Shown: piece after piece, positions 10,956 through 17,966 of the stretch
How the letters are laid out: the number at the start of each line of letters is the position of its first letter
Numbering within the stretch: position 1 is the first letter of the stretch
The notes under the pieces: generated by a model
What the model saw: the letters and a program-made list of their open reading frames with translations, nothing else
What the model was told of the DNA's origin: nothing
Databases searched by the model: none
Origin: Escherichia phage glasur
Strand: one strand, 5' to 3'
Sequence record: MN850583.1
Length of the DNA stretch: 42,507 nucleotides
Position numbers and translations under genes: made by a program

Positions 10956-13421
10956 ATGGCTATTCGAGCACAGATTATCGACGTTGAAACTGAGAACCAC
11001 GAGTGGTATGGGGAGCTGGCATCACCTCGCTGCCCTGACAACTACGTGGTGATGCAGGGACAGCGCGACTGTGTGCTGACCAAGGATGGCTGGGAGTTCT
11101 ACAAGCGTGAGGAATATCGGTACGCATCCCGTGAGGATTGGCTGGCGAACAAGAGCCTGCACCTCCACCCGGATACGAACATACTGGTTGCACACAACGC
11201 GCCGTATGAACTGAGCTGGTGGTTCGAGCATTACGGTGATGAGTTCAAGGCGTTCCTCTTACGAGGTGGCCGTGTATTCTGTACCGCGTATGCTGAGTAT
11301 CTGCTGACACACCAGCAATCCCAGTACCCATCCTTGAACGAGACAGCACCGAAGTATGGTGGTACTCACAAGGTGGATGCAGTCAAGGCAATGTGGGAGT
11401 CAGGTTATCTGACCAGCCAGATTGACGCTGAGCTGCTGAGCGAGTATCTGTCCGGGCCGTCCGGGGATATTGAGAACACGACCAAGCTGTTCGTTGGTCA
11501 GTGGGCAGAGCTGACGAAGCAGGGCATGTTGCAGATGGCACTGACCCGCTTCGAAGGTATGCTCATGTGGGCGTACATGATGCACTCCGGTCTACACGTT
11601 GACCGTGAGGTAGCAGAGCGTAACCGCCGTGAGTTGCAGGATTCAATCAGTGGGTTAACCGAGACACTGATGGGCTACCTGCCTGCCGACATGCCAAGTG
11701 AAGCGCGTGAGCAATTCAAGTTCACGTCTGCTTATCACATGAGCGCATTCGTGTTCGGCGGCGTGATGAAGTACAAGGCGCGAGTCGAGCGCCGGGATGG
11801 AGATGGCAATCTCATTTACGTGAAGGTGGATGCACCACTGTTCAAGCGTGGCAAGGACAAGTGGCTCAAGCATACCAGCGAGTGCGAGTGGGATGATGAG
11901 ACTGGGTTGTGGTATGACCCGGTTGAGAAGGTACACCAGACCATCTACTCCAGCGGGAAGAACAAGGGTGCGCCCAAGTTCGAGAAGTTGGCGACCGATG
12001 AGGTGGACACCAAGTGGGGTGAGGTACTGTTCCGGTTGCCCGGTCTGCTGCGTGTGCAGGACAGACGAGCGCGGGAGATTGCCGACAACCTTGAATGGGA
12101 AGACCCGAAGCGTCCGGGTGAATATCTCCGGCGCACTGGTGACTGGGTAGGTAAGCGCAAGCTGGCTGACGGTTCTCCTGTATTCAGTACGGCGGGTGAG
12201 GTGCTGGACATTCTGGCAGCTCGTAAGATTCCCGGCGTCGTGGAGATTGCTGACCGGGCCAAGGCGCAGAAAGACCTCGGCACCTACTACCTCAGCGAGA
12301 CGTTTGATGATGAGGGCAACGTGACTGGCCAGTCGGGGATGATGCAGTTCATCCAGCCGGACAGCATCGTACACCACACCATCAACATGACCGCGACTGA
12401 GACGACGCGATTGTCATCTCAGCGACCGAACAGCCAGAACCTGCCACGTAAAGGTACGAGTAAAGTTAAGCAGATGTTCACCTCTCGCTTTGGCGAAGGT
12501 GGCCGCATCGTTGAGGCTGACTACTCGGCACTGGAAGTGGTGGGGCTGGCCGGGTTCAGTAAGGACAAGAACCTGATTCGTGCATTGCTCGATGGTATCG
12601 ACATGCACTGTATGCGATTGTCTGCTCAACTCAATGAGCCATACGAGGACGTGCTTAAGAAGTGCAAGGATGAATCCCATCCTGACCATGCACGATACAG
12701 TCAGATGCGTACTGACATTAAGCCCAAGGCGTTCTCCTATCAGTATGGTGCAACAGCGCGAGGCATTGCCTACTCGACTGGTTGCTCGGAGGAAGAAGCA
12801 CAGGCGTTCATCGACAACGAGAAGGGTCTGTTCCCGGAAGTTGAAGAATGGTTCGACGCTGTAATCTTCCCCGCCGTTGAGCGTAGTGGACAGAGCAACG
12901 TGTTCAAGGAACAAGATGAGAACGGACGGTGGCAGGTGTATCGCCGTGGTCACTTCCGCTCGCCGGGTGGAACTTGTTATTCATTCCGTCAGTATGAGAA
13001 ATGGAACAAGGCGGCGCGTGCTTATCTGATGGAATACAAACCAACCCAAATGCGTAACTATCCTATTCAGGGTGAGACAGCGTTTTGGGTGCAGGGAATT
13101 GGTGGGCTGCTGTTCCGCTGGCTGCTGGCCAATGACTTCTTTGGTGGGCGTGTGGTTCCCATCAACCAAGTGCATGACGCATTCTATTTCGACGTGGCAC
13201 CTGACTGTCCTCACGAGTTCTTCGTTGGACTCAAGGCAATCATGGAATCCATCCCGGAATATTACAACCACATCTGGCCTGAATATAACCTGACAGTTCC
13301 GTTTCCGGCAGAGGTAGAAGCTGGGCCAAGCATGTACGAAAAGCATCACGTAGAGACGACAGCCGAAGAAGTGCTGGAGTTCAAACGTAACTTCCTGACG
13401 AGTAAGGGTATTAGCATATGA
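10956..13421 (+). CDS. Family A DNA polymerase (T7 gp5-like) with 3'-5' exonuclease domain
   Basis: Exo I motif IIDVETEN, polymerase motif A DYSALEVVG, motif B KAFSYQYGATARG and motif C VHDAFYFD. The ATG at 10956 is preferred; the track's GTG at 10932 is possible. Confidence 0.92.
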   Translation: MAIRAQIIDVETENHEWYGELASPRCPDNYVVMQGQRDCVLTKDGWEFYKREEYRYASREDWLANKSLHLHPDTNILVAHNAPYELSWWFEHYGDEFKAFLLRGGRVFCTAYAEYLLTHQQSQYPSLNETAPKYGGTHKVDAVKAMWESGYLTSQIDAELLSEYLSGPSGDIENTTKLFVGQWAELTKQGMLQMALTRFEGMLMWAYMMHSGLHVDREVAERNRRELQDSISGLTETLMGYLPADMPSEAREQFKFTSAYHMSAFVFGGVMKYKARVERRDGDGNLIYVKVDAPLFKRGKDKWLKHTSECEWDDETGLWYDPVEKVHQTIYSSGKNKGAPKFEKLATDEVDTKWGEVLFRLPGLLRVQDRRAREIADNLEWEDPKRPGEYLRRTGDWVGKRKLADGSPVFSTAGEVLDILAARKIPGVVEIADRAKAQKDLGTYYLSETFDDEGNVTGQSGMMQFIQPDSIVHHTINMTATETTRLSSQRPNSQNLPRKGTSKVKQMFTSRFGEGGRIVEADYSALEVVGLAGFSKDKNLIRALLDGIDMHCMRLSAQLNEPYEDVLKKCKDESHPDHARYSQMRTDIKPKAFSYQYGATARGIAYSTGCSEEEAQAFIDNEKGLFPEVEEWFDAVIFPAVERSGQSNVFKEQDENGRWQVYRRGHFRSPGGTCYSFRQYEKWNKAARAYLMEYKPTQMRNYPIQGETAFWVQGIGGLLFRWLLANDFFGGRVVPINQVHDAFYFDVAPDCPHEFFVGLKAIMESIPEYYNHIWPEYNLTVPFPAEVEAGPSMYEKHHVETTAEEVLEFKRNFLTSKGISI

Positions 13422-14305
13422 CCGCATCAGTATTGAACCGCATGAACTCCATCGTCGAACAGTATGTTGACGAGGAAGAACTTGACTTTAACGAAGCCAC
13501 GTCTGGTGGTGGTAAGCTCCTGCCGGAAGGTAAGGCGCTGGCCCGTCTGGTTGGCTACGTTGAGGTGGGGCCGCACGCCACTAAGCAGGCACCGGACAAA
13601 CCGCCAGTCAACAAGTTCTTCCTCCAGTTCGCACTGTGGGGCAAGGCCAAGAACGGCGAGACTTACCACGAAGTTGTCAATGGTAAGATGGTGCCGGGCA
13701 AAGTTCGCACGCAGTTCATCGCTGTGAAGAAAGACCTGAACAGTAAGTCCGGCGCTTACAAACTGTTCAAGCGCATGAACCCGGACAAGACTGCGAAGCA
13801 CTTCGCGCAGTTGCTGAACCATACCTTCATCGTTCCGATTACCCACAACGAATCTGGTGAGGGTGAGAACAAGAAGGTGTATGCGAACATCGACCTTGAG
13901 AACATCATGCTCGCTGTTGACCCGGTAACTGACCAGCCGTACCCGGTGCCGGAAGTCGAAGACGAGACGCTGTTCAAGCTGTTCCTGTGGAACCGTCCGA
14001 CCAAGGAAGACTGGGAATCGCTGTACATCGACGGCAAGAACGACGATGGCAAATCCAAGAACTGGATTCAGGACAAGCTGCTTGAGTCTCCTGAGTTCCC
14101 CGGCTCACCTCTTGACCTGCTGCTCAATGGCGCTGGCGCTGGCTCTGCCATCGCTGAGCTGCCGGAGCTGGGCGATGTAGGCCAGCCGGAGGAAGTGAAG
14201 GAAGTTAAGCAGGAAGTCGCTGAGCTTCCGGTGAAGGGTGAAGCCGACAGCAAGAAAGAGCCGGACGTGACTGGCGAAGCTGACTTCGGTTTGCCTAGCC
14301 TGTAA
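13418..14305 (+). CDS. Protein of unknown function with acidic low-complexity C-terminus (295 aa); possible ssDNA-binding protein
   Basis: ORF track. Start overlaps the DNA polymerase stop (ATGA). Acidic tail with EADF near the C-terminus is reminiscent of T7 gp2.5; this is speculative. Confidence 0.6.
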   Translation: MTASVLNRMNSIVEQYVDEEELDFNEATSGGGKLLPEGKALARLVGYVEVGPHATKQAPDKPPVNKFFLQFALWGKAKNGETYHEVVNGKMVPGKVRTQFIAVKKDLNSKSGAYKLFKRMNPDKTAKHFAQLLNHTFIVPITHNESGEGENKKVYANIDLENIMLAVDPVTDQPYPVPEVEDETLFKLFLWNRPTKEDWESLYIDGKNDDGKSKNWIQDKLLESPEFPGSPLDLLLNGAGAGSAIAELPELGDVGQPEEVKEVKQEVAELPVKGEADSKKEPDVTGEADFGLPSL

Positions 14306-14341
14306 GACTGGTGGCCACAGGGACGTGGCCGGAGGACAACG

Positions 14342-15316
14342 ATGAGTAGACTTCAACGCTTACTCCACAATGCAGAGGAACTTGATGACCAGTTTGATGG
14401 TTACGTGTCTGGTCGTATCTTGCTGTGCGATGCTGACTCCACGGTCTACGTCGCGGCAGCAACCACGAAGAACATCGAGACAGCGAAGACACGATTCTGT
14501 TCCGGGGTACTGACCGCCAAGTTCCTCGCCAATGCTCAGTCAGTTCGTATCGAGTTGACCGCTGCGGAGTGTACGAAAGCTGGACGGTACAAGCTGCGTG
14601 GGGCCAAGCTGTACCAAGGCAACCGAGACAAAGACCGCAAGCCCGGTCTGGTCGAGCCGTTGCGTAAAGCAATTGGCCGGAACATGTTCAACGTCCCGGA
14701 TGGTGAGGACTGGTACGTCCACCTGAACTTTGAGTTCGAGGCAGACGATACCTTAATCATGGATGCGTGGACGATTGGCATTAATGATGCAGTAATCTAC
14801 AGCGCGGATAAAGACCTGCGTTGTTGGCCGGGCAGATTCCTTGACCCGTATGACAACAAGGTGCTGGAGCCGTGCGTTGGTATTGGCAGGCTGTGGTGGC
14901 ATGAAACGAAAAGCGACAAGTCGCTGGTCGGCCACGGGCCTATCTTCTTTTGGGCACAGATGTTGATGGGCGACACCGCCGACAACATCGCTGGCGTGAA
15001 GAAGGTTGGGAAGCAGACTGCTTATGATATGCTGGTTGATTATCAAGAGATTGATGATGAATCAGTGGTTGCGGAATTGGTGCTGCGTGAATACATGCAG
15101 CGTGACCAGAACCCGTGGCCGGAGGCAGTGGCGCTGTGGCTGTACCGCACGCCGACCTACTCATTCGCAGCCCACTTGAACACGCTGACCTTGAGCAAGG
15201 AGCTGCGTGTCTGGCTGCATAATAAACTGGGTGAGGAATGGTATGCGGAAAGTGACTGGCGCGACTCTGTTGCAGCTACGGAAGAATGCGATGGGTTGCA
15301 ACTGCCCACTCTGTGA
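14342..15316 (+). CDS. 5'-3' exonuclease (FEN/T7 gp6-like)
   Basis: H3TH-type motif GDTADNIAGVKKVG and acidic clusters. Good GGAGGA ribosome-binding site. Confidence 0.85.
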   Translation: MSRLQRLLHNAEELDDQFDGYVSGRILLCDADSTVYVAAATTKNIETAKTRFCSGVLTAKFLANAQSVRIELTAAECTKAGRYKLRGAKLYQGNRDKDRKPGLVEPLRKAIGRNMFNVPDGEDWYVHLNFEFEADDTLIMDAWTIGINDAVIYSADKDLRCWPGRFLDPYDNKVLEPCVGIGRLWWHETKSDKSLVGHGPIFFWAQMLMGDTADNIAGVKKVGKQTAYDMLVDYQEIDDESVVAELVLREYMQRDQNPWPEAVALWLYRTPTYSFAAHLNTLTLSKELRVWLHNKLGEEWYAESDWRDSVAATEECDGLQLPTL

Positions 15317-15623
15317 TGAGCCGATGGTTGACCTCAAGCTCATGGTGGTTGACCACGACCATGTGACTGGGGAGATTCGCGGTGTCATCTGCCGCTGGTG
15401 TAATGCTCAGCTCGGTAAGGTGGAGAACTCTGCCAACCGAGCGAAGCGCCAGCGCACAGTGGATGACTGGTTGGATAGCGCCATCGAGTGGCGACGTAAG
15501 CAGCACACTGGTCTGATGTATCCGACACATAAGACAGAGGCTGAGAAGAAAGCGGCGGCAGCCGATAGACGTAAAAAGGCAGCAGCAGCTAAAGCGCGTG
15601 CCGTAATCACTAAGGGGAAATGA
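15243..15623 (+). CDS. Endonuclease VII-type Holliday junction resolvase
   Basis: CNCPLCDEP...DHDHVTGEIRGVICRWCN zinc-binding catalytic signature of the T4 endonuclease VII family. The ATG at 15243 (GAGGAA upstream) is preferred over the track's GTG at 15207 and overlaps the exonuclease gene end. Confidence 0.7.
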   Translation: MRKVTGATLLQLRKNAMGCNCPLCDEPMVDLKLMVVDHDHVTGEIRGVICRWCNAQLGKVENSANRAKRQRTVDDWLDSAIEWRRKQHTGLMYPTHKTEAEKKAAAADRRKKAAAAKARAVITKGK

Positions 15624-16747
15624 TGACGAAGTTAAGTAACGCACAGCTCAAGGCAGATATCGCTGAGGGTCTTGGCACCACTGAGATTGCTGAGAAGCAT
15701 GACATGACCACTGGTGCTATTCGATACCGAAAGCGCCAGCTTGCCAAGAGCGGCTGGAGTCCTGAGCACGACATGACCAAGGAAGTGCCGGAGCCATACG
15801 CGGTTAAGGGTACGTCCACGCTGTACGATAAGGACGGCAACGTGGTCATGCAGTGGGTGAAGACTGCGCTCGACCGTGAGCAGGAGCTGGCCCTGCTGCA
15901 AGAAGCTGTGGATGCAATCAGCGAAACCATTACCCCGGAAGTGGCCCGGCCATTCAACGGCGGCCCGGCACCTGCTGAGCTGCTGAACCTGTTCATCCTC
16001 ACTGACTACCACCTCGGTATGCTGGCGTGGTCGGAGGAAACTGGTGATGACTGGGATATGAAGATTGCCGAAGACCTGCTGGTCAAGTGGTTCGCGGCAG
16101 CCATTGCCAGTGCGCCGCCAGCGCAGGTTGCTATCTTCGGACAGCTCGGTGACTTCCTGCACTGGGATGGGTTGGATGCAGTGACACCATCGAGTGGGCA
16201 TGTGCTGGATGCAGACACGCGATTCCAGAAGCTGGTGCGTGTGGCTATCCGGGCGCAGCGCCGTATCATCTCCATGCTGTTGGAGAAGTTCCCGCAGGTT
16301 CACGTAGTGTGTGCCGAGGGCAACCACGATATGGCCAGCTCAATCTGGATGCGCGAGCTGCTGCACGTACTGTACGCCGACGAGCCGCGTGTCACTGTTG
16401 ACCGCAGCCCTGACCCGTACTACTGCTATGAGCATGGCGAGACGGCACTGTTCTTCCACCATGGTCACAAGCGTAAGGCTGAGCAACTGGAGACTGTACT
16501 GGTTGCGAAGTTCCGCGAAGTGTATGGCCGAACCAAACATGCGTATGCACACGTTGGCCACCTGCATCACAAGAAGGTGCTGGAGTCTGCCGTCATGATT
16601 GTCGAGCAGCACCAGACGCTGGCAGCTAAGGATGCCTATGCTTCTCGTGGTGGCTGGCTGAGCGAGCGCAGCGCGAGCGTGATTACTTATCATGCCCGGT
16701 ACGGTGAGGTCGCACGATTCACCATTAGCCCGGAGATGTTGGAGTGA
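15620..16747 (+). CDS. Calcineurin-like metallophosphoesterase (putative DNA exonuclease) with N-terminal helix-turn-helix
   Basis: Metallophosphoesterase motifs ILTDYHLG (DxH), GQLGDF (GD), AEGNHD (GNHD), FFHHGH and VGHLHH. N-terminal LGTTEIAEKHDMTTGAIRYRKRQL resembles a helix-turn-helix. Confidence 0.7.
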   Translation: MMTKLSNAQLKADIAEGLGTTEIAEKHDMTTGAIRYRKRQLAKSGWSPEHDMTKEVPEPYAVKGTSTLYDKDGNVVMQWVKTALDREQELALLQEAVDAISETITPEVARPFNGGPAPAELLNLFILTDYHLGMLAWSEETGDDWDMKIAEDLLVKWFAAAIASAPPAQVAIFGQLGDFLHWDGLDAVTPSSGHVLDADTRFQKLVRVAIRAQRRIISMLLEKFPQVHVVCAEGNHDMASSIWMRELLHVLYADEPRVTVDRSPDPYYCYEHGETALFFHHGHKRKAEQLETVLVAKFREVYGRTKHAYAHVGHLHHKKVLESAVMIVEQHQTLAAKDAYASRGGWLSERSASVITYHARYGEVARFTISPEMLE

Positions 16748-16968
16748 GTAGGACACTGTATGAAGACAGTGTAGTGGAGCTTAAGTCTGATGGCCTCTCG
16801 ATTGACTGGGAGGCCCGGACGCAGGTTCAGCTATACGACGATGGCACCGTCTGCATTTCACAGGACGGCGATGAGGTATGGCTCCCATGGGCCTATGTCA
16901 AAGATATCATCTTTGCTTTGGAGGAAGCGCACGATGCACATGAAAGACACCGTAGTAGTAGACCTTGA
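16744..16968 (+). CDS. Protein of unknown function (74 aa)
   Basis: Track ORF with GTG start overlapping the upstream stop. No internal Met; overlaps the next gene by about 35 nt. Confidence 0.4.
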   Translation: MSRTLYEDSVVELKSDGLSIDWEARTQVQLYDDGTVCISQDGDEVWLPWAYVKDIIFALEEAHDAHERHRSSRP

Positions 16969-17437
16969 CGGCACGCTGGCTGATGGCCGTTGGCGTCTGC
17001 ACCTGCTGCCTCCACCGGAGCGCAGGCATCTGGATGAAGCGTGGGCCGAGTTCAACTTGGCTGGCGCTGACGACCCAGCGTTTCAGGACACGATTGATAT
17101 TGTGAACGCACTGGCCCTCACGTATCGCATTATCATTCTGACCGGACGCGGGGCCGTGGCCCGTGAAGTAACCGAGCAGTGGCTCGACGATAATGGTGTG
17201 GTGTACGACAAGCTCATCATGCGTGAGATTGGCGACTGCCGCAAAGACACTGAGATGAAGCGTGCAGCGCTGGAAGACATTGGCATTGAGAACATCGTCT
17301 GTGCCTTTGATGACCTGCCGCACATCGTGGACTTTATGCGCAGCCTCGGCATCACAGTGTACGAAGTAACCCGGTATGAAGACAACCATGAGTATGTCCA
17401 TGCCAATGCAAAATACGATGGGGATAAAGATGAGTAA
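16934..17437 (+). CDS. HAD-superfamily phosphatase-like protein (167 aa)
   Basis: N-terminal VVVDLDGTLADG carries the HAD motif I DxDGT. ATG at 16934 with GGAGGAA upstream, inside track ORF 16790..17437. Confidence 0.55.
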   Translation: MHMKDTVVVDLDGTLADGRWRLHLLPPPERRHLDEAWAEFNLAGADDPAFQDTIDIVNALALTYRIIILTGRGAVAREVTEQWLDDNGVVYDKLIMREIGDCRKDTEMKRAALEDIGIENIVCAFDDLPHIVDFMRSLGITVYEVTRYEDNHEYVHANAKYDGDKDE

Positions 17438-17966
17438 ACGTGGCGACCACTTCTGCCTGTGCATCGAGCGCGACTACAAAGACGCGCTGCTTAATGAGCT
17501 GCGCGATGCTGGTGTAGTGCTGACATACGACGAGCCTTACGATGTGCCGAACGACAGTCGTGATTACTACACCTGCGTATACAATGGCAGTACCAAAGTG
17601 CTGGTGCTTGAACCATTCGAAGTGCAGGCCGTGGAGAAATCATTCATCCCGGTAGAGCCGGAAGCTGGGCCGGGCGGTATGAAGTATGACGGCGGTAAGC
17701 CACGCATGGCCCTGCTGCTCGACGGCTGCCCGAATGCACTGGAGGCTGTGGCCAGCGTGCTGACCTTCGGCGCTCAGAAGTACGCAGCTCACTCATGGCA
17801 GACTGTGCCGGAAGGTGAGGAACGTTACAAGTCAGCGCTGCTCCGGCACCTGACTGCGGTGGGTAAGGGTGAGGAACTCGACCCGGAATCTGGCCTGCAC
17901 CATCTGGCGCACGCTGCTTGCAATGCACTGTTCATTCTCGAACTGGCTTTAAGGAAAACTAAATGA
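17430..17966 (+). CDS. Putative MazG-like nucleotide pyrophosphohydrolase domain protein (178 aa)
   Basis: C-terminal half (KYDGGKPR...VLTFGAQKY...RYKSALLRHL...ESGLHHLAHAACNALFILE) resembles, from memory, the phage dATP/dGTP diphosphohydrolase (MazG-like) domain. N-terminal half is of unknown type. Confidence 0.45.
   Translation: MSKRGDHFCLCIERDYKDALLNELRDAGVVLTYDEPYDVPNDSRDYYTCVYNGSTKVLVLEPFEVQAVEKSFIPVEPEAGPGGMKYDGGKPRMALLLDGCPNALEAVASVLTFGAQKYAAHSWQTVPEGEERYKSALLRHLTAVGKGEELDPESGLHHLAHAACNALFILELALRKTK

Follow-up and report, generated by a model that had tools for sequence, protein, structure and literature searches.

An out-of-frame overlap of 74 nucleotides joins an exonuclease gene to the probable start of an endonuclease VII gene in a Bonnellvirus coliphage

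The locus and its genes

The stretch of DNA considered here, referred to throughout as the window, comprises 42,507 nucleotides of Escherichia phage glasur (MN850583.1), a T7-like coliphage of the genus Bonnellvirus (Autographiviridae), which at the locus under study is 98.6% identical to Escherichia phage forsur. Two nuclease genes meet at this locus on the plus strand. The upstream gene, delimited from the list of open reading frames and by its match to PHROG 107, occupies 14342..15316, encodes a 5'-3' exonuclease of 324 amino acids and terminates at a TGA at 15314-15316, and the same end is annotated in forsur, usur, J8-65 and other relatives. The downstream gene, recognised by PF02945, PHROG 423 and T4 gp49, encodes endonuclease VII and lies at 15243..15623, a protein of 126 amino acids when read from its best-supported start, the ATG at 15243. 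Its frame, +1 with respect to that of the exonuclease, is open from a GTG at 15207 to the TGA at 15621-15623, with in-frame ATGs at 15243, 15291 and 15324.

Depending on the start chosen, the two genes would share 74 nt (ATG 15243), 26 nt (ATG 15291) or 110 nt (GTG 15207). With the first of these, the last 24 codons of the exonuclease and its stop are common to the endonuclease VII gene, and the stretch 15243..15316 on the plus strand reads YAESDWRDSVAATEECDGLQLPTL* in the exonuclease frame and MRKVTGATLLQLRKNAMGCNCPLC(D) in the endonuclease frame. The T-G of the endonuclease frame mirrors the D-W of the exonuclease frame. The first pair of zinc-ligand cysteines of endonuclease VII is encoded within the shared stretch, by the codons for Cys21-Pro-Leu-Cys24 at 15303..15314, such that the exonuclease stop takes the third base of the Cys24 codon and the first two of Asp25. 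The preliminary description of this DNA had placed ATG 15243, preceded by GAGGAA, 74 nt inside the exonuclease frame and in a different frame, and these coordinates are confirmed here. It had also offered ATG 15291 as an alternative with a smaller overlap, which amounts to 26 nt; the comparative evidence presented below makes that codon the weaker candidate.

Downstream, the start of the next plus-strand gene, at 15620..16747 (375 amino acids, annotated in relatives as a phosphoesterase or a DNA repair exonuclease), joins the endonuclease VII stop through an ATGA overlap. Two open frames on the minus strand, 15161..15388 and 15157..15309, were considered and set aside as lacking support, the annotated genes of the relatives being all on the plus strand.

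Nature of the two proteins

As judged from its sequence, the downstream protein is a junction-resolving nuclease of the T4 gp49 type. It scores 52.7 bits against PF02945 (cut-off 23.6), matches PHROG 423 with E = 1.2e-31 and the PDB chains of T4 gp49 with E = 1.2e-5, and is aligned with T4 gp49 by hhalign with a probability of 98.9%, reliably so only from residue 13 onwards. All 126 residues are also encoded at the corresponding locus of phage usur (100% protein identity). The putative zinc ligands C21, C24, C50 and C53 align with C23, C26, C58 and C61 of T4 gp49; C21, C24 and C53 are invariant in two alignments (A3, which includes T4 gp49, and A4), and the third cysteine position is a histidine in several relatives. 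Likewise invariant in both alignments is a putative active-site cluster of D37, H38, H40 and N54, aligned with D40, H41, H43 and N62 of T4 gp49, which we take to be the catalytic or functional residues of that enzyme.

The upstream protein is assigned as an exonuclease because of its match to PHROG 107 ('exonuclease', E = 9.1e-59, covering residues 11-292 only) and the annotation of its relatives. Its score of 34.9 bits against PF01367, the C-terminal domain of the 5_3_exonuc family in Pfam, falls short of the cut-off of 40, and a profile built from 10 homologues matched no PDB chain at E <= 0.01.

The start of the endonuclease VII gene

It is highly probable that the endonuclease VII gene starts at ATG 15243 in the +1 frame, that both frames of the overlap are translated, and that ribosomes enter by way of the gene's own Shine-Dalgarno sequence as the likeliest route. 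Several lines of evidence point to 15243 as the codon that would be used in vivo. The GAGGAA at 15233..15238 on the plus strand, embedded in the exonuclease codons for G-E-E, lies with its GAGG core 6 nt from the ATG, and its predicted duplex with the 3' end of 16S rRNA has an energy of -7.5 kcal/mol, as compared with a median of -6.05 for 36 gene starts in the window and a background mean of -2.86 kcal/mol. A purine-rich sequence is kept at this position in J8-65 (GGAG), in Pantoea phage LIMEzero (AAGGAG) and in two uncultivated lineages, L044 (AAGGAA) and L045 (GAGGA), with energies of -5.4 to -7.7.

Further evidence comes from the peptide itself. The 16 codons from 15243 to 15291 encode a stretch that is conserved in distant genera, where the alignments show an N-terminal M-R-K-(V/L)-T, and tblastn matches to phages of Vibrio, Pectobacterium, Aeromonas, Ralstonia, Klebsiella and Cronobacter reach back to residue 1-2 of the protein read from 15243. 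The aligned methionine is the annotated start in Koot, Aeromonas P2, RSB3 and Dev-CD-23823, and in the last of these the endonuclease frame opens at the aligned Met codon itself. From Met1 to the first cysteine there are 20 residues, as against 22 in T4 gp49. In the T4 structure a strand-helix element precedes the zinc site; a single-sequence AlphaFold2 prediction of the 126 residues gave a strand at 2-5 and a helix at 6-16 with pLDDT 43-47, in a model too poor overall (mean 53.4) to count as evidence that residues 1-16 form such an element. The start at 15243 predicts MRKVTGATLLQLR as the N-terminal peptide, with or without Met1.

The internal ATG at 15291..15293, encoding Met17, would yield a protein of 110 amino acids and leave 15243-15290 untranslated in that frame. 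This start is annotated in 7 public Bonnellvirus records, Met17 is invariant in 17 Bonnellvirus genomes, and both cysteine pairs would be kept, the four-cysteine feature being complete only if the start lies at or upstream of 15291. However, its Shine-Dalgarno energy of -3.5 is weak and near the background mean, and the start would omit the 16 codons that carry the conserved N terminus, into which the profile matches extend (from residue 7 for PHROG 423, 11 for Pfam and 13 for hhalign). Beyond the genus the codon is lost: Met1 and its Shine-Dalgarno sequence are present in LIMEzero, L044 and L045, whereas Met17 is missing in two of these three (LIMEzero and L045, both with Leu), and distant genera have Gly there. 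Double coding explains the invariance of Met17 within the genus, since it overlaps the exonuclease codons GAT-GGG. A start at Met17 alone is thus quite unlikely.

Use of both codons, giving a full-length and a nested shortened protein, would resemble T4 gene 49, for which Barth et al. (1988; cited in PMC2988021) reportedly described two nested products. Both in-frame ATGs (15243 and 15291) are invariant within the genus, but the second is not conserved beyond it and has a weak Shine-Dalgarno sequence; given the invariance of Met17 within the genus a minor nested product may arise from it, and regular use of the two starts appears very unlikely.

Initiation further upstream, at the GTG at 15207..15209, would give 138 amino acids. 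It opens the longest open reading frame in the endonuclease frame and has an AAGGAG 4 nt upstream (-7.7 kcal/mol), and the frame is open at this codon in the window and in 6 of 16 relatives. Yet 10 of 17 Bonnellvirus genomes carry a TGA in this frame (equivalent to 15228-15230 of the window) between the GTG and the ATG at 15243, which excludes the GTG for those genomes. No relative has anything resembling the 12 additional residues, the spacing of 4 nt is short, and the exonuclease frame, in which AAG GAG encodes the invariant residues K-E, suffices to explain the AAGGAG. Occasional initiation at this GTG may occur in the window and in the 6 relatives of 16 with an open frame, but it is unsupported as the start of the gene and is most improbable in that role.

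Placing the start at the ATG just past the exonuclease stop (15324..15326) would abolish the overlap altogether, and this is how the gene is annotated in usur, Kc261, RZ4, HHU8, Lidtsur RefSeq and LIMEzero RefSeq. Such a start would give a protein of 99 amino acids, has no Shine-Dalgarno sequence (-1.9), leaves out 27 conserved upstream codons and removes the invariant Cys21/Cys24 pair corresponding to C23/C26 of T4 gp49, and is hardly conceivable as the true one.

A programmed +1 frameshift fusing the exonuclease to the endonuclease was also considered and rejected, given that no slippery or shifty motif was found and that the downstream gene has its own conserved ATG and Shine-Dalgarno sequence; the room for such a shift is further restricted by the in-frame TGA that 10 of 17 genomes have upstream.

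Constraint on both reading frames

The pattern of variation among the Bonnellvirus genomes indicates that an open frame extending by chance does not suffice to explain the overlap and that both frames are under constraint. Only 3 of 24 exonuclease wobble sites vary within the overlap, as compared with 172 of 244 elsewhere in the gene (Fisher p = 3e-8), and the minimum count for any 24-codon window of the exonuclease outside the overlap is 12. The segment 15246-15290 is informative for the choice between ATG 15243 and ATG 15291, as it would be coding in the endonuclease frame only with the former. Here 2 of 15 exonuclease wobble sites vary (15247 and 15286), against about 70% elsewhere, and of the 12 alleles 8 leave only the endonuclease residue unchanged, 2 only the exonuclease residue, and 2 alter both; both the alleles and the largely fixed wobble positions argue against a start at 15291. 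Alleles that are nonsynonymous in both frames were found at 3 of 93 opportunities, and those synonymous in one frame at 14 of 94. The bias of substitutions toward the endonuclease frame within Bonnellvirus (10 versus 4, p = 0.19) is not significant on its own. Moreover, diversity is already low from about 60 nt before ATG 15243, where 7 of 20 exonuclease wobble sites vary and pi is 0.029 at 15182-15211, so that the reduction in synonymous variation is not wholly attributable to the second frame.

What the shared stretch encodes is, for the exonuclease, a C-terminal tail that is poorly conserved and lies past the conserved domain, and, for endonuclease VII, the N terminus with the first zinc-ligand pair. 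The 'LP.L' seen in the exonuclease tail of four lineages is the out-of-frame shadow of the CP.C of the endonuclease. Overall, the locus constitutes a small and clean case of a stable out-of-frame terminal overlap, located in the least constrained ends of both proteins. The preference of the preliminary description for ATG 15243 is thereby borne out, with the conservation of the N-terminal peptide, the upstream TGA, the loss of Met17 in relatives and the constraint on wobble positions all in agreement.

Initiation of translation and the question of coupling

On a polycistronic mRNA, ribosomes would initiate at 15243 through the gene's own GAGGAA, and reinitiation after termination of exonuclease translation would be the less likely route. 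Termination-reinitiation typically involves spacings of -4, -1 or -8 nt, a geometry not found here, where the spacing is -74 nt. According to a 2025 review (PMC12548453), coupling by reinitiation declines steeply as overlaps lengthen, and one systematic study found none at -25 nt. The spacing of -74 nt makes termination-reinitiation coupling unlikely, and initiation led by the Shine-Dalgarno sequence, independent of exonuclease translation, is consequently the best reading.

Coupling through the unfolding of RNA was likewise considered, and no stable conserved structure hiding the ribosome-binding site was found. The segment 15180-15340 folds with a minimum free energy of -44.8 kcal/mol, where shuffled sequences average -48.3 kcal/mol (z = +0.87), and thus shows no excess of structure. 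The AUG can pair with 15215-15221 in a small stem, but T15220C disrupts this pairing in 5 of 17 genomes without compensation. A scan of the whole window against Rfam at gathering thresholds gave no match. Between 13300 and 16900, a scan for sigma-70 promoters returned no promoter-like site, and one for terminators returned a single terminator-like site on the minus strand, within chance expectation. These results neither demonstrate nor favour the suggestion in the preliminary description that the overlap may couple expression of the two nucleases, given the spacing of -74 nt, the absence of excess structure and a normal Shine-Dalgarno sequence.

One could nevertheless imagine that the long overlap, of 74-83 nt across lineages, is a selected regulatory device and not a frozen accident, acting through ribosome traffic or through a nested isoform from Met17. 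In the first variant, ribosomes on the exonuclease tail, crossing the ribosome-binding site of endonuclease VII, would throttle its synthesis and so keep an enzyme that cleaves junctions and may be toxic at a set proportion of the exonuclease; in the second, Met17 would give rise to a shortened product nested in the longer one, like that reported for T4 gene 49. Such a selected role is unlikely.

Annotation of the gene in public records

The 74-nt overlap is already known, being annotated in the RefSeq record of J8-65, and is an ordinary gene overlap that opens no new question. Its main practical value lies in the quality of annotation, as most public records of related phages start endonuclease VII too short. 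The start-site ambiguity raised in the preliminary description is real in this sense, since near-identical genomes carry three different annotated starts, among which comparison favours 15243. In 14 annotated Bonnellvirus records, the equivalent of 15243 is used in 2 (J8-65 RefSeq and ROV85), that of 15291 in 7 and that of 15324 in 5. Half of these records (7 of 14) would therefore lose the first 16 residues of the protein, and a further 5 of 14, together with LIMEzero RefSeq, begin past the exonuclease stop and lose the first zinc-ligand pair. The match to phrog_11865 begins only at residue 35 of endonuclease VII, a pattern which suggests that short annotations of this kind have spread into family libraries.

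Comparison with related phages and known systems

At least two genera, Bonnellvirus and Waewaevirus, and the two uncultivated lineages have kept an overlap of 74-83 nt between these two genes. It measures 80 nt in LIMEzero, 83 nt in L044 and 77 nt in L045, whose endonuclease VII proteins are 56-61% identical in the alignment and whose start ATG is placed within the exonuclease codons TGG-TAT-G. The overlap lengths of these key lineages were read by hand; the automatic overlap caller took spurious short open reading frames at some loci. The closest parallel is gp21/gp22 of J8-65 (NC_025445), where the same gene pair (13228..14205 and 14132..14512) shares the same start codon and the same 74-nt overlap at a nucleotide identity to the window of about 82-83% at the locus. 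The differences from the window are minor: in J8-65 a TGA in the endonuclease frame, absent from the window, directly precedes the region of the ATG, and the Shine-Dalgarno sequence is GGAG instead of GAGG. Pantoea phage ROV85 is annotated in the same manner as J8-65.

More distant homologues with the same MRKLT N terminus include phiKMV gp23, Koot, RSB3, Aeromonas P2, Dev-CD-23823 and JG068 gp22. In these phiKMV-like Autographiviridae, too, endonuclease VII starts within the end of a preceding gene of the same orientation, but the two share only 4-29 nt, very often as an 8-nt ATGnnnnTGA, and the upstream gene is often a small open reading frame and not an exonuclease. Some of these relatives have weak Shine-Dalgarno sequences (RSB3 -3.0, Dev-CD -2.1, Bertil -1.5). 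The overlap of JG068 gp21/gp22 is 20 nt (PMC3765740).

With T4 gp49 (PDB 1EN7, 1E7D, 1E7L and 2QNC) the protein of the window shares membership of the PF02945 family, the aligned Cys, His, Asp and Asn residues, and a start in which hydrophobic residues precede T-G (MRKVTG in the window and MLLTG in T4 gp49). It differs in its length of 126 amino acids as against 157, in being without most of the C-terminal domain, in its Lys/Ala-rich tail and in having L57 where T4 gp49 has E65, and overall identity is only about 20%. Finally, the coat/lysis overlap of MS2, at -50 nt, offers a known instance of an out-of-frame downstream start lying tens of nucleotides before the upstream stop (PMC12548453). 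Expression of the MS2 lysis gene depends on translation of the coat gene, whereas the endonuclease VII gene described here has a normal Shine-Dalgarno sequence and no predicted inhibitory structure.

The exonuclease and endonuclease VII frames

The region that carries the two nuclease genes (14342-15623) shares 98.6% identity with Escherichia phage forsur, 98.0% with phage usur and 81-93% with about 15 further members of Bonnellvirus, a genus of Autographiviridae, among them J8-65, Lidtsur, ROV85 and Kc261. The genes at the locus, all on the plus strand, run in the order DNA polymerase, a 295-aa protein, exonuclease, endonuclease VII, a 375-aa homologue of phosphoesterases/DNA-repair exonucleases, and polynucleotide kinase. 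The exonuclease starts 36 nt past the end of the 295-aa gene in the window, forsur, usur, ROV85 and Kc261. A 65-aa ORF (198 nt) directly 5' of the exonuclease, overlapping its start, is annotated in RZ4, mellemsur, megetsur, J8-65, Lidtsur, LF82-23 and smaasur (147-344 in the compared sequences L024, L025 and L027; 1270-1467 in L003); it is unannotated in forsur, usur, ROV85 and Kc261, and the window's ORF list holds nothing comparable there (14306-14341).

The exonuclease ORF occupies 14342..15316 on the plus strand. The endonuclease VII frame, on the same strand and +1 relative to it, stays open between GTG 15207 and its stop codon (15621-15623) and holds in-frame ATGs at 15243, 15291 and 15324; the overlap would be 110 nt from the GTG and 74, 26 and 0 nt from the three ATGs. 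The preliminary description had placed the most plausible start at ATG 15243, behind GAGGAA (15233-15238) and 74 nt inside the exonuclease ORF in another frame, with ATG 15291 as an alternative of lesser overlap, and the sequence contains all these elements. PHROG 107 aligns to the exonuclease (E = 9e-59) only up to residue 292, and the overlap begins at residue 301, in a C-terminal tail whose length is highly variable between genera.

The start of endonuclease VII

Six lines of sequence evidence make it highly probable that endonuclease VII starts at ATG 15243, the start preferred in the preliminary description; N-terminal homology, Shine-Dalgarno (SD) pairing, a conserved Cys pair and profile matches all support it. 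In tblastn with the 15243 protein, matches in phages of other genera (Vibrio DE18, Pectobacterium Koot, Aeromonas P2, Ralstonia RSB3, Klebsiella KPPK108.1 and Cronobacter Dev-CD-23823) start at residue 1 or 2 of the query. For Koot, P2, RSB3 and Dev-CD-23823 the annotation itself starts the gene at the aligned Met, and since the Dev-CD-23823 frame opens at exactly that codon, other starts are impossible there. M-R-K-(L/V)-T recurs as the N-terminal motif among cultured and metagenomic relatives. Profile matches also reach 5' of Met17, the codon of ATG 15291: to residue 11 for Pfam, 7 for PHROG 423 and 13 for hhalign to T4.

The competing starts fare less well. GTG 15207 is ruled out in 10 of the 17 Bonnellvirus sequences, as an in-frame TGA four codons 5' of ATG 15243 makes it an impossible start for those genomes. 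In place of Met17, Pantoea phage LIMEzero and the uncultivated lineage L045 have Leu, and distant genera have Gly. A start at 15324 would lose Cys21-Pro-Leu-Cys24 (codons 15303-15314), which lie 5' of it; this Cys pair, aligned to C23/C26 of T4 gp49, is invariant in every relative. With the 15243 start, 20 residues precede the first Cys, as compared with 22 in T4 gp49 (sequence verified against PDB 1E7D/1EN7). The SD of 15243 pairs with the 16S 3' end at -7.5 kcal/mol, as compared with -3.5 at 15291 and -1.9 at 15324, against a median of -6.05 over 36 gene starts in the window and a background mean of -2.86. In J8-65, LIMEzero, L045 and a second uncultivated lineage, L044, the homologous ATG likewise has an SD of similar strength ahead of it.

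The suspected start-site ambiguity is real in public records, where three different starts are annotated among near-identical genomes, yet it is resolvable. The 15243 equivalent (74-nt overlap) is annotated in J8-65 RefSeq and ROV85, the 15291 equivalent (26 nt) in forsur, LF82-23, mellemsur, megetsur, aldrigsur, altidsur and smaasur, and the 15324 equivalent (no overlap) in usur, Kc261, RZ4, HHU8 and Lidtsur RefSeq, and also in LIMEzero RefSeq. A useful correction follows: the gene is truncated in 12 of the 14 annotated Bonnellvirus records examined and in LIMEzero RefSeq. The 95-position family phrog_11865 ('endonuclease VII') matches the window (15345-15602) only from residue 35 (M-V-V-D-H-D-H) on, which suggests that the family derives from gene calls lacking the N-terminus.

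Because J8-65 RefSeq already carries the overlap (gp21 13228..14205, gp22 14132..14512) alongside other long ones in its gp20-gp27 module (gp20/gp21 44 nt, gp24/gp25 50 nt, gp25/gp26 68 nt, gp26/gp27 26 nt), the feature is known and ordinary for the group. Some of these other overlaps may be start-site miscalls too. Equivalent ORF overlaps lie at 16744-17966 in the window (ORFs 16744..16968, 16790..17437 and 17376..17966), the last two sharing 62 nt.

Dual coding and conservation of the overlap

Across 17 distinct Bonnellvirus sequences, aligned gap-free over 15150-15420, only 3 of 24 exonuclease wobble positions vary in the overlap, as against 172 of 244 in the exonuclease-only part (Fisher p = 3e-8); elsewhere in the exonuclease the minimum over 24-codon windows is 12. 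Over 15246-15313, observed alleles relative to opportunities number 10/49 for those synonymous in the endonuclease frame only, 4/45 in the exonuclease frame only, 2/3 in both and 3/93 in neither. Changes in the first 16 endonuclease codons are mostly endonuclease-silent (T8, L9, L10) and cause replacements in the tail of the exonuclease (S to T/L, V to I/A, A to P/D, T to S/A); the 10:4 bias to the endonuclease frame is alone not significant (p = 0.19).

A further caveat is that diversity is already low over about 60 nt 5' of ATG 15243 (7/20 wobble sites variable; pi 0.029 at 15182-15211); this may reflect the ribosome-binding region or chance. This segment, 30-60 nt 5' of the endonuclease VII start and inside the exonuclease, has conserved synonymous sites despite a single known coding frame; its pi is the second-lowest of the exonuclease-endonuclease region in the 17 genomes, the lowest being 0.021 at 15332-15361. 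It is variable in the outgroups LIMEzero, L044 and L045.

The same arrangement is kept in three lineages outside Bonnellvirus, namely LIMEzero (genus Waewaevirus; endonuclease VII identity to the window 61%, overlap 80 nt), L044 (61%, 83 nt) and L045 (56%, 77 nt), with the ATG each time inside the exonuclease codons TGG-TAT-G (Trp-Tyr). Codon-sized indels within the overlap are common to both frames, and across these lineages both proteins are less conserved in the overlap than outside it: identity is 42-48% in the exonuclease tail versus 66-81% in the core, and 44-48% at the endonuclease N-terminus versus 59-66% in the remainder. The frames imprint each other. Out of frame, the endonuclease C-P-x-C reads as L-P-x-L in the exonuclease tail, and the exonuclease D-W as T-G at endonuclease positions 5-6; genera that lack the long overlap have T-R at these positions. 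One more lineage (L051, L056, L057) has a 65-nt overlap. In more distant relatives the endonuclease start overlaps whichever gene precedes it by 4-29 nt, very often in an 8-nt ATGnnnnTGA form, and the JG068 gp21/gp22 overlap is 20 nt (PMC3765740).

Initiation of the second cistron

Most likely, the two genes are independently initiated cistrons on a polycistronic mRNA, the second of which would use its own SD and a start within the dispensable tail of the first. Coupled expression of the two nucleases, raised as a possibility in the preliminary description, finds no support from the -74 nt spacing or from RNA stability. Unfolding-type coupling requires inhibitory RNA structure; around the start the RNA has no excess stability relative to shuffled sequence (z = +0.87), and in 5 of 17 genomes the sole stem touching the AUG is disrupted with no compensating change. 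Rfam and promoter scans gave no matches. Brown and Wade (2025; PMC12548453) propose unfolding-type coupling in MS2, where the coat and lysis genes are spaced at -50 nt. According to the same review, over 80% of overlapping pairs share less than 30 bp, and coupling peaks between -4 and +3 nt and was absent at -25 nt in one systematic study; on these figures, reinitiation-type coupling at -74 nt is unlikely.

The SD is strong in all long-overlap lineages (-5.4 to -7.7 kcal/mol), and relatives with 4-8-nt overlaps often lack one (-1.5 to -3.0; sequences L036, L039 and L035 at 1481-1503 set against window 15223-15245); it is very weak in RSB3 (-3.0), Dev-CD (-2.1) and Bertil (-1.5). This is suggestive, in a small sample, of two initiation modes, short overlaps relying on reinitiation and long ones on the SD; Koot and Aeromonas P2 do not fit, with 8-nt overlaps and an SD of -6.4. 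A nested isoform has reportedly been described for T4 gene 49. That Met17 likewise gives such an isoform, or that the conserved long overlap tunes the endonuclease:exonuclease ratio, appears quite improbable.

Comparison with T4 endonuclease VII

The window protein scores 52.7 bits against PF02945 (cut-off 23.6) and matches PHROG 423 (E = 1e-31) and the T4 gp49 PDB chains (E = 1e-5). With profile thresholds exceeded and the ligands and D-H-x-H/N aligned, it is a bona fide endonuclease VII family member. Residues 50-61 (15390-15425) read C-R-W-C-N-A-Q-L-G-K-V-E-N. The third zinc ligand is His, not Cys, in several other genera (L-H-R-S-C-N). Most relatives have Glu at the T4 E65 position, and LIMEzero and the L010/L051 lineage have Leu, as in the window. 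Like T4 gp49, the window protein carries the four zinc ligands, and its D-H-x-H and N align to T4 D40/H41/H43/N62; it differs from T4 gp49 in having Leu57 in place of E65 and in being shorter, at 126 as against 157 aa.
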